Of a stretch of DNA of 64,000 bases, positions 36,001 through 39,000 are shown piece after piece. How positions within the stretch are numbered: the first letter of the stretch is position 1; each line of letters starts with the position of its first letter. Location: the NCBI RefSeq assembly GCF_013167455.1, contig NZ_CP038328.1; one strand, written 5' to 3'. A program made the position numbers. The stretch is from Escherichia coli O157:H7 (GTDB lineage Bacteria; Pseudomonadota; Gammaproteobacteria; Enterobacterales; Enterobacteriaceae).

Positions 36001-39000
36001 CCACTACATTTCCCCGGTGTGGAACACGCACTTCCCCCAGAGACTGGCCACAGACGCACCCGTTCTGGCAGACGAACCTGAAGTAACCCGGCAGCATCTG
36101 GTAGCTGGAGGTACCGTCATGAGAGTTGAGCAGAATAATTTCAGGGACATGTTCTCCGTTTATCTCTCCGGCCCGCCGCAGACGCAGCATGTGTTTTGTG
36201 TATCCCCGGCGGCCCGGGTCGCGCACACGGGTCTGGCAGGCGAAGAACGGCTGAAAGCCTTCCCGCTGCAGATTTTCCAGGACGGTAATGGTGGGAATGT
36301 ACGCATACCGTTCACTGCGGGAGGTGTGCCGGTCTTCCCCAAAAATACTGGGTACATGGCGTATCAGTTCTTCATGTGTCAGCGGACGGTCACGGCGTAT
36401 CTGGTTTGCAGCATAACCAAAACGACTGGCTAATCGCATACTTTGCTCCTTATCGGTGGTTAAGATTTACTGGTGCAATAAATGAAAAAAGCCGCGTCTC
36501 CCGGAGAAGACGCGGCCTGACGGGTGAAATGAATAAGGTTTATTGTCTGAGAGGCCTTTCACTGGCGAGCCACGCATTAAGCGGCTTTCCGGTAACAATG
36601 GCTGGGGCTGTATTTACCTTTGATATTAATAATGTGCAGAGAAACGCATGGTTTACTCCTTAGATTTTAAGTTTGTCCTGGGCTACACCGACAGGTTTTC
36701 CGGATGTGTCGATGACTCCTACCGTCGGTACGCCATTTTTGATTTCGAAGAACGGTTTGTTGCTACCTGAGCACAGTTGATTGTCCCCGTATTCAATCAT
36801 TTGTGCTTTCCCGGTTTTCAGGTTAACTACCGAGACAGTGTAGTCGTAGCACCAGGCACCACCACGTTCAAGCACGAAAACATAGCTGTTATCTTTATAG
36901 TTGAACTGATTCTTTGTCTGGCAATTCATACCGTCAATTTCGGTACAGGAAAACGCTTCTGTAGTATTAACGTATTTGATGTTATTTGGCAGTTTTACTT
37001 GTTTCGCAGTAGCGAAGACAGAGAACAGAATAGTTACAGCAACGAGTAAAGTTTTGATAAAAGTTTTCATGATAGACTCCTTAAATTAGTTAACCGCAGC
37101 TACGTAGTTTTTCACCAGATACGCGAATTCATGCACGCCAATTTCACCGAACCAAACCAGGTAGGCCGGGTCATCTAAACCAAAGTAACGGTAGCCAACA
37201 ACTTCATGGGTTTTTGGGTTATAGAGTGTTACGATAAAGTCCCAGCCGCAGGTATTGGCTTTGCAACCGTCGCCCTGGAACCAGACTGTACCGTTAATGT
37301 TTACTGGCGTGATACCTCCACCAGGGCCATCCATATAGCCGCCTTTACCGAACATGCCGCTCAGTCCGACCGGTTTTAATGCTTTGTCGATAGCGGCTTT
37401 GTAGGTAGCGTCACCTTCGTACAACTCGTACGTTGATGGACACGCTCCAGGTTGTTCAGCCCAGGCTTCCGGGTTACAACTAAGAGCTTGTTTTACGGTA
37501 GCCGCTTCTGCGTTAAAGTTAAAGCCCGTGAACAGAACCGCCAGAAATAACATAAGGGTATGTAAACGTTTCATTGTAAATATTCTTCCGTTGTAAATGG
37601 CGCTGGAAAATTTCTCATCAGTGAAACCTTCCGGAAGTTTCCCCCCCTTGTATGATGTATATCGCCAGTATTTTATTTCATCCCGGCTGTAATTTTTATA
37701 TTCCCCGGCACGTGCAATAACGCGGACCAGAGATATAAGGCTCATTAATAACTTTACAGGTAATTTCATAATTAAATTTCCAGTGAGTGAATTGACAGGT
37801 GAGGGGTAAAACTTTCTCTCAGGTAATATATATCTGAAAATATTTTCAATAACACCAGACAGGAAAAACACCACCACAGGCGGTGGCGTTTCTTTGGGGC
37901 GTCTTTATTTAATCCGGGCCATCGCGTTTCTCAGTGCCAAATCTGCCTCTTCCGTTATATCCAGGCTTTTCTGCAATACCGCCTCTGACCGGGTCAGTGC
38001 CTGACGTGCTGCCAGCGGTTTCCGGATATGCTCCATCGCCAGCATCGTGTCTTCATAGCCCTGCTGACACCAGGCGTCGGTATGTGCCGATGTAAAACTG
38101 AGCAGACCGCCGCTGTTGCCACCATCACCTGCATATTTCAGCCTTTTCCGGGGACGGATCTCAAGGATTGTGGTGTCCGGAAAAGCCTGGCGATCCCATA
38201 AAGAACCGTCACTCAGATGCGTCACAATCACCATATTGCATCCGGCATCGACCAGAGGCGTCACAGGGGTATTTCCCTGCATATTTCGCCATCCTCCCAT
38301 ACCACCATCACCGAACATTGTCCCCTGAACCTCACGGGGACGGAACAGCAGGGGCAGCGCGGCTGACGCAAGCAGAGCCTCTTTCTGCTGTCCGCGGGGC
38401 AGGCTCTGGATATGCTGAAAAACGGCGTTTTTCGTGGTTCCGACACCCAGTTCAGCACGAATGCAGTCAATAATATCCTGCATGCCCCCTTCTGTGGGGT
38501 ACAGCGACACATACAGCGGTAGCCCGTCTGCCAGAGCATCAGTATCAAGATAATGATCCATCAGCGCTGTCAGGGGCTCATCTGACAACAACGGCTGAGC
38601 CATCAGATTGTCAAACCCGTTGATTGTCGATATATGGCGAAGAAGCGTCGTAAGCAGTGCTCCTGCACGTCCGGGGATCTGGCAGAGGTTCATTGCCTGG
38701 AACAATTTTTTCAGCAATGAAAAGTAAACCAATCTGTTTACCGACAGCACCTGATTATTCCCCAGATGATCCCAGAGCGCCTCCAGGCGTACGGCAGCTT
38801 CTGACAGATCGGTAGAGGCCGCGATAATGGCACCATTGAATGCGCCAATGCTGGCCCCTGAAACCATGCTGATCTGTGTACCACACTCTGCCAGTGCCTT
38901 AACCACTCCCGCCTGATAAGCGCCCACCGCCCCGCCACCGGACAGCACCAGCCCCGTTTTCATTTCTGTACTCATGCAGCCCCCTTCTGAAATATTTCAT

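Follow-up and report, generated by a model that had tools for sequence, protein, structure and literature searches.

We analysed a 64,000-nucleotide stretch of DNA from Escherichia coli O157:H7 (NCBI RefSeq assembly GCF_013167455.1, contig NZ_CP038328.1; henceforth the window, with positions counted from its first nucleotide). Downstream of a gene for a patatin-like phospholipase it carries two adjacent genes, A, with a product of 162 amino acids (aa), and B, with a product of 136 aa, which by sequence comparison constitute a two-gene cassette common to E. coli islands of the CP4-44 type and to SPN3US-like jumbo phages. Profile searches and a predicted structure place A as a divergent Ivy-family protein with the Ivy fold, and B is a small β protein unrelated to A that travels with it. 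Our favoured reading, at a probability of about 0.6, is that the cassette came from a phage, works in the periplasm and has in A a protein with Ivy-like action. The features on which it leans, with the ratio of non-synonymous to synonymous substitution rates abbreviated as dN/dS, are as follows:

37086–37574, minus strand: gene A, divergent Ivy-family exported protein of 162 aa, assigned from its open reading frame (ORF), family profile, AlphaFold model and dN/dS
37503–37574, minus strand: predicted signal peptide of A, residues 1–24, with cleavage predicted between AEA and A (sequence features, homologues, model)
Within 37086–37574, minus strand: predicted mature part of A, about residues 25–162
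37248–37265, minus strand: codons of the C104-K-A-N-T-C109 loop of A, aligned by profile to the lysozyme-binding CKPHDC of Ivy
36660–37070, minus strand: gene B, predicted exported all-β protein of 136 aa with four cysteines, from an orphan family (ORF, phrog_8968)
37005–37070, minus strand: predicted signal peptide of B, residues 1–22, with cleavage predicted between ATA and K (sequence features, homologues, model)
37077–37082, minus strand: AAGGAG ribosome-binding site of B, inside the A–B spacer (read from the sequence)

A and B are real genes. The minus-strand ORFs bear out a preliminary description of this locus, which had reported two same-strand genes of 162 and 136 aa; the two do lie as close together as it implied, with 15 nucleotides (nt) between them instead of the 16 that it gave. 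Both the E. coli O146 locus L013 and the phage contig L016 have the identical AAGGAG site in this spacer. When the two genes were compared with four or five homologues, dN/dS fell between 0.12 and 0.27 (0.12–0.22 for A and 0.14–0.27 for B) at synonymous divergences (dS) of 0.6–2.2, and both genes are thus under purifying selection. Together they are present, at a coverage of at least 80%, in about 41% of complete E. coli genomes (2247/5426).

Both products are predicted to be exported by the Sec pathway and to be released into the periplasm by cleavage of their signal peptides. The N-terminus of A reads MKRLHTLMLFLAVLFTGFNFNAEA, followed after the predicted cleavage point by ATVKQ, and that of B reads MKTFIKTLLVAVTILFSVFATA, followed by KQVK. 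As the preliminary description had proposed, both are built like Sec signal peptides, with a basic n-region, a hydrophobic core (best 11-residue Kyte–Doolittle mean of 2.5 in A and 2.9 in B) and small residues at −3/−1; inspection of the two leaders revealed no lipobox cysteine. The homologues of A and B keep the signal peptide (for A, those that begin at the same ATG), and residues 1–17 of B are nearly invariant. In the AlphaFold models the signal region of A is an N-terminal helix with a low predicted local distance difference test score (pLDDT), and residues 1–22 of B have a pLDDT below 50. The paired cysteines of the earlier account are likewise present: each mature protein has four of them (C33, C45, C104 and C109 in A; C42, C50, C74 and C100 in B), all invariant or nearly so across the respective families, and the two products look disulphide-bonded.

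The placement of A among the Ivy proteins comes from its family. A search of 1.8 billion representative proteins recovered distant relatives of ~150 aa and 25–38% identity, and the nearest ones outside E. coli, from Salmonella and Pectobacterium, bear the NCBI name 'Ivy family c-type lysozyme inhibitor'. The alignments on which the structure models are based, of 21 sequences for A and 27 for B, are both shallow. The A family profile matched the solved Ivy structures 1gpq, 1xs0, 1uuz and 4ps6 with E-values of 7e-8 to 5e-7, and 13 of the 21 members individually matched the Pfam Ivy family (PF08816; best E 6e-9). The phage copy of A hit the NCBIfam model 'Ivy family C-type lysozyme inhibitor' weakly, scoring 18 bits where the cut-off is 180. 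Taken alone, A matched no NCBIfam, PADLOC or PHROG family, and phmmer searches of the PDB sequences with the single A or B sequence returned nothing usable. The preliminary description had suggested structure prediction with a Foldseek search as a check, and for A this gave a clear result: the AlphaFold model (pLDDT 88.5) shows helices flanking five β strands, and its top eight matches in the PDB are all Ivy proteins, with TM-scores of 0.63–0.73 and a probability of 1.00, the rest having E > 1. Sequence identity between A and the solved Ivy proteins is 16–20%. Multi-repeat matches of A to WD40-like and other repeat proteins (P0102, P0109, P0110, P0116 and others) were set aside as spurious, a judgement made from P0102 and P0116.

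The A family retains two cysteine pairs, C33/C45 and C104/C109. The latter pair, invariant in 21/21 sequences, lies in a C-x4-C-G motif, and in the profile alignment to 1gpq and 1xs0 this C104-x4-C109-G aligns with the CKPHDCG of Ivy. Ivy blocks c-type lysozyme with its disulphide loop, and inhibition depends on this CKPHDC loop (PMC4262234); the motif is strictly conserved in 30 Ivy proteins, with the variant CExxDxC in five (PMC4262234). In A, three of the four inner residues of the loop differ from the canonical ones, among them a His to Asn change, so that its target is probably not the hen-egg-type lysozyme that Ivy blocks. The inner residues also vary among close homologues of A (KANT, KANA, KSNA, KSDA and KAHA), and 14 of the 21 members of the wider family keep the His. 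Lytic transglycosylases, too, are inhibited by Ivy proteins, weakly so in E. coli (PMC10139938).

B matches phrog_8968 over its full length (residues 1–132 of 136; E 3e-46), and tblastn found homologues of 31–37% identity in 40 records of SPN3US-like jumbo phages, whose hosts are Salmonella, Erwinia and E. coli. Its counterpart in SPN3US is gp182. The neighbours of the latter, gp181 and gp183, share the cysteine scaffold of B and thus look like paralogues of it. The AlphaFold model of B (pLDDT 77) is all-β, and the fold search gave no informative match, the AlphaFold database (AFDB) yielding only uncharacterised enterobacterial 'secreted proteins'. No member of the B family matched Pfam, and searches of Pfam, NCBIfam and PADLOC with the single B sequence returned nothing usable. 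A profile match to the designed protein ThreeFoil (3pg0; E 6e-6) was rejected, as it is the sum of three identical repeats with an E of 11–17 each. Separately, we observed that the nearest Ivy-like proteins to A outside E. coli, of 314–316 aa and from Salmonella and Pectobacterium (P0094 and P0096), have an extra C-terminal domain with four cysteines. All four line up with those of the B family, a hint of an A–B fusion, but the profile comparison is not significant (hhalign probability of only 5–9%) and the hint serves as a lead only.

The phage side of the cassette is represented by five metagenomic contigs in the range of 168–225 kb that carry the A+B block, namely L016 (168 kb), L008, L021, L023 and L022 (224,831 nt), the last of which came from a single-protein scan of IMG/VR. 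Between window positions 37581 and 36628, L016 is 77.5% identical to the window at the DNA level over 959 bp. This similarity begins 7 nt before A, extends to ~32 nt after B and stops at those edges. The gene order in the phage contigs is YfjT, a 128-aa gene, A, B, a 129-aa gene, two further genes and an SMC-like gene, with no patatin or other lipase gene beside A and B. The SMC-like protein is 53% identical to SPN3US gp186, and the order as a whole corresponds to that of SPN3US gp180–gp186, with gp181 occupying the slot in which the contigs have A. A tblastn search found no copy of A in cultured phage genomes. Also in the A-bearing contigs, ~7 kb downstream of the cassette, is a gene for a protein with an SLT (lytic transglycosylase) domain (17407–18093 in L016; 15385–16083 in L008), a candidate for the partner or the target class of an Ivy-type inhibitor. 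A literature search on the protein accessions, on Ivy in prophages and on SPN3US gp180–183 found nothing relevant.

We infer that the cassette most likely entered the E. coli island from such a phage. In E. coli islands of the type represented by L003, a frameshifted relic of the phage 128-aa gene lies directly upstream of A (L003 7680–8000); over the last 54 residues it is 81% identical to the phage protein, which belongs to the gp180 family (phrog_9424). The same arrangement occurs in many E. coli chromosomes. The 128-aa gene and B are conserved phage-wide and the 128-aa gene has decayed in the bacterium, which suggests a transfer from phage to island.

The surroundings of the cassette in the window include the following:

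36489–36518, minus strand: intrinsic terminator-like hairpin downstream of B, with a 13-bp stem, eight G–C pairs and a T-run (scan)
37575–37769, minus strand: 65 codons left of a third gene for an exported protein, 'gene C', in frame with A (RefSeq annotation, similarity to L003)
37869–37885, minus strand: terminator-like hairpin, 20 nt past the patatin stop codon (scan)
37905–38975, minus strand: patatin-like phospholipase gene, as context (ORF, annotation)

The first of these confirms the terminator that the preliminary description had placed after B; in all, the scan found seven terminator-like sites in the region against 1.7 expected. The ~330-bp AT-rich gap that it had described upstream of A has that size and composition (330 nt from the patatin stop codon to A; GC fraction of 0.40 versus 0.545 in the patatin gene) but is not empty, for it holds the second hairpin and the gene C relic. 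Its suggestion that A and B form a unit apart from the phospholipase gene stands up well, given the hairpin after patatin and the DNA homology to phage that is bounded at the edges of the cassette.

The relic also accounts for a discrepancy in annotation. RefSeq models A with 227 aa (684 bp, start at 37769), and lists both A and B as 'hypothetical protein'. The relic aligns at 48% identity (E 2e-17) with the N-terminus of gene C in L003 (7098–7640), where that gene is intact; it codes for a 180-aa signal-peptide protein, follows patatin in L003–L007 and has no match in Pfam, PHROG or NCBIfam. To judge from these comparisons, the 227-aa model is a chimera of the gene C relic and A, called as one gene after a deletion fused the two in frame. 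In L013 and L014 an in-frame stop interrupts the relic and the annotated A has 161 aa, and in the phage contigs A begins at the same MKRL, with a GGAG-type site in front of it. The conserved protein is the 162-aa form.

Chromosomes of the E. coli O157:H7 type match the window at 100% identity. A and B belong to a CP4-44-like island whose minus-strand genes are, in order, a dynamin/CrfC-like fragment, an RdcB/YjcZ-like gene, patatin, A, B and a DUF932 gene, followed by antirestriction, RadC-like and DUF987 genes and cbeA/cbtA. The dynamin/CrfC-like first gene (39874–40695) retains no more than its last 227 codons, against 794 aa in intact copies elsewhere; with only this C-terminal fragment left, the operon has lost its start and probably its promoter. 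The RdcB-like gene overlaps the dynamin-like gene and is itself overlapped by the patatin gene by 4 nt. The patatin N-terminus, MSTEMKTGLVLSGGG, is of low hydrophobicity and shows no signal peptide. No YfjT gene is found in the window. Elsewhere in it we noted three insertion sequences of ~1.31 kb (42656–43965, 53723–55033 and 62563–63877) that are 95.8% identical to an IS3-family element of L001, one of which interrupts a TonB-dependent receptor gene next to the island. The cbtA toxin gene (33840–34208 region) is annotated as frameshifted in the identical O157 genomes, with the antitoxin gene cbeA intact.

Other E. coli islands, surveyed here as examined examples, vary in what follows patatin. 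In some, patatin is followed by gene C and A, with B missing. In L025 (3066–4887) and L024 (3063–4584), patatin is followed by a YfjT-family gene, a gene for a DUF4339 membrane protein and a second lineage of the B family, 39% identical to SPN3US gp182 and 35% to B. The YfjT protein downstream of patatin in such islands is 73% identical to the jumbo-phage copy. The YfjT gene of strain K-12 lies in CP4-57, an island with neither a patatin nor a dynamin gene. Across E. coli genomes, patatin matches 3367 places and A+B 2459. We read the interval from patatin to DUF932 as a shared cargo slot, and an entire set of small exported proteins seems to be common to CP4-type islands and SPN3US-like phages.

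These contexts bear on how the two genes are to be understood. The preliminary description had seen in them a lipase toxin/immunity pair, with A and/or B as periplasmic immunity proteins against the adjacent patatin, after the manner of type VI Tle/Tli pairs. The location of two signal-peptide proteins on the same strand directly downstream of patatin speaks for it, and small exported proteins do follow patatin in all the E. coli island variants examined. However, the patatin lacks a signal peptide and is tied by its gene overlap into a dynamin-like/RdcB/patatin operon, homologues of which are treated as cytoplasmic, and possibly as phage defence, in PMC12922286; a hairpin and a spacer of 135–330 nt separate it from the cassette; and in the matching genomes no secretion-system gene is annotated within 14–20 kb on either side. 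Further, B is missing from some patatin islands and different genes follow patatin in others, while A and B are intact beside patatin genes that are truncated or have a premature stop. The preliminary description had itself named homologues in lipase-free contexts as evidence against a toxin/immunity pair, and the jumbo-phage contigs carry A and B together in just such contexts. A and B are thus independent of patatin. As a relative of Ivy, A would moreover be expected to have a different kind of partner, the known ones being peptidoglycan-cleaving enzymes and not lipases, and we consider an immunity function highly improbable. An accessory role, in which A and B would serve the dynamin-like/RdcB/patatin system as, for instance, periplasmic sensors or modulators of a membrane-directed phage defence, fares somewhat better but is still unlikely. 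The recurrence of B-family, YfjT-family or A genes after patatin in three island architectures is in its favour, as is the finding that in lysogens of E. coli MP1 the strongest up-regulation is that of five genes of such an island, the dynamin-, RdcB- and phospholipase-like ones among them (PMC12922286). Yet lytic jumbo phages carry the same families without the operon, CP4-57 of K-12 carries such families without patatin or dynamin genes, and in the window A and B are intact although the dynamin-like gene is down to its C-terminal remnant. PADLOC-DB, for its part, holds no defence-system model that matches A or B and gives the patatin only weak phospholipase-effector matches.

The Ivy relationship could also be taken to mean that A is a virulence or fitness factor directed at the animal host, acting like chromosomal Ivy against gut lysozyme, with B as unrelated cargo. 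Tolerance to lysozyme is known to be conferred by Ivy, MliC and PliG (PMC2267010, PMC3458809). The cassette is also common among E. coli from human and animal sources. Against such a role are the altered lysozyme-binding loop, with its three substituted inner positions, and the presence of the same gene in strictly lytic jumbo phages, which argues for a function in phage infection. Besides, E. coli already carries ivy, mliC and pliG, and we regard a host-directed factor as a doubtful explanation. That A and B are decaying, functionless remnants of an old phage-to-island transfer would fit the state of their neighbours, which include the gene C relic of the window, the dynamin-like fragment and, in L003, what is left of the phage 128-aa gene. 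Both ORFs, however, are intact in thousands of genomes, their dN/dS is low despite the high dS, and the signal peptides and all the cysteines are conserved; there is very little to recommend this view.

If the cassette is, as we favour, a phage-derived periplasmic one with an Ivy-like A, A would bind a peptidoglycan-cleaving enzyme, either a lysozyme or a lytic transglycosylase, in the periplasm, and the loop closed by C104–C109 would block the active site of that enzyme. The likely benefit is that the cell wall would be protected from an incoming muramidase. This inhibitory activity, its target and its biological role are proposed by analogy. There is a precedent in phage T4, whose Spackle protein is a periplasmic inhibitor with a signal peptide that acts on the tail lysozyme gp5 (PMC7650644). 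Its mode of inhibition is allosteric; inhibitors of the Ivy type instead enter the substrate cleft (PMC7650644). Purely on such grounds, A might have a part in excluding other phages.

Several observations count against this picture. On its own, A has no Pfam match even at an E of 10, and its loop, CKANTC, has none of the three residues Pro, His and Asp found in the canonical CKPHDC; A may inhibit no muramidase at all. Neither profile nor fold searches detected a recognisable relative of B with a characterised function, and a scan found no sigma-70 consensus promoter upstream of A. The direction of transfer is no more than suggested by gene decay and phage-wide synteny. Finally, every E. coli island examined has an A or B-family exported gene downstream of the patatin operon; a looser functional link between patatin and the exported genes, in place of a shared insertion slot, could account for this.

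The same elements allow a bolder and decidedly speculative proposal, which we think possible but on balance improbable: the cassette might be a periplasmic 'cell-wall shield' that arose in nucleus-forming jumbo phages and was later domesticated by E. coli islands. A would then be an inhibitor of the Ivy type whose variable C-x4-C loop has redirected it to the virion lysozymes or lytic transglycosylases of competing phages, and B together with gp181 and gp183 would represent a new family of periplasmic inhibitors, the whole providing superinfection exclusion or a block of lysis from without. Were this true, ~40% of E. coli strains would carry a phage-derived envelope defence outside current catalogues.

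What is new here is the assignment of a widespread 'hypothetical protein' to the Ivy family, the recognition of a cassette common to jumbo phages and the corrected gene model of A. Both genes have gone without any other description in annotation despite their presence in some 41% of complete E. coli genomes, O157:H7 included, and the Ivy placement gives A a directly testable activity. The shared cassette shows that genes have passed between chromosomal islands and strictly lytic jumbo phages, and a tempting but wrong toxin/immunity annotation is removed. Should A block a phage or bacterial muramidase, it would be the second phage-encoded periplasmic lysozyme inhibitor after T4 Spackle, as well as an unlisted defence at the level of the envelope.

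Among known systems, A most resembles in form the Ivy proteins themselves (E. coli YkfE, P. aeruginosa Ivyp1 and Ivyp2; PF08816), with which it has in common a Sec signal peptide (predicted in A), a similar size, a five-strand fold with flanking helices and a C-x4-C loop at the homologous position. It differs from them in having Asn where the literature describes a His that inserts into the active site, in an additional conserved N-terminal pair (C33/C45), and in its location on a phage-derived cassette in place of a chromosomal housekeeping gene. The cassette shares its gene order with the gp180–gp183 block of SPN3US (Seoulvirus; phrog_9424, phrog_8968 and phrog_5248), where B belongs to the gp182 family; in the slot that the Ivy-like gene fills in the A-bearing contigs, the sequenced phages of this group carry gp181, a third paralogue resembling B. 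The YfjT family (PF27224) is a different protein family from A and B but represents comparable cargo in comparable islands, and adjoins them in the phage contigs. Type VI Tle/Tli pairs are likewise small signal-peptide proteins encoded beside a phospholipase gene; there, the likeness ends, for the lipase next to A and B is cytoplasmic and part of a dynamin-like operon, no secretion genes are annotated nearby and the pair occurs lipase-free in phages. For T4 Spackle (gp61.3) we found no relationship to A in sequence or fold, and it is absent among the fold matches of A, but as a small, phage-encoded periplasmic protein with a cleaved signal peptide it offers the best analogy for the role that we propose for A.

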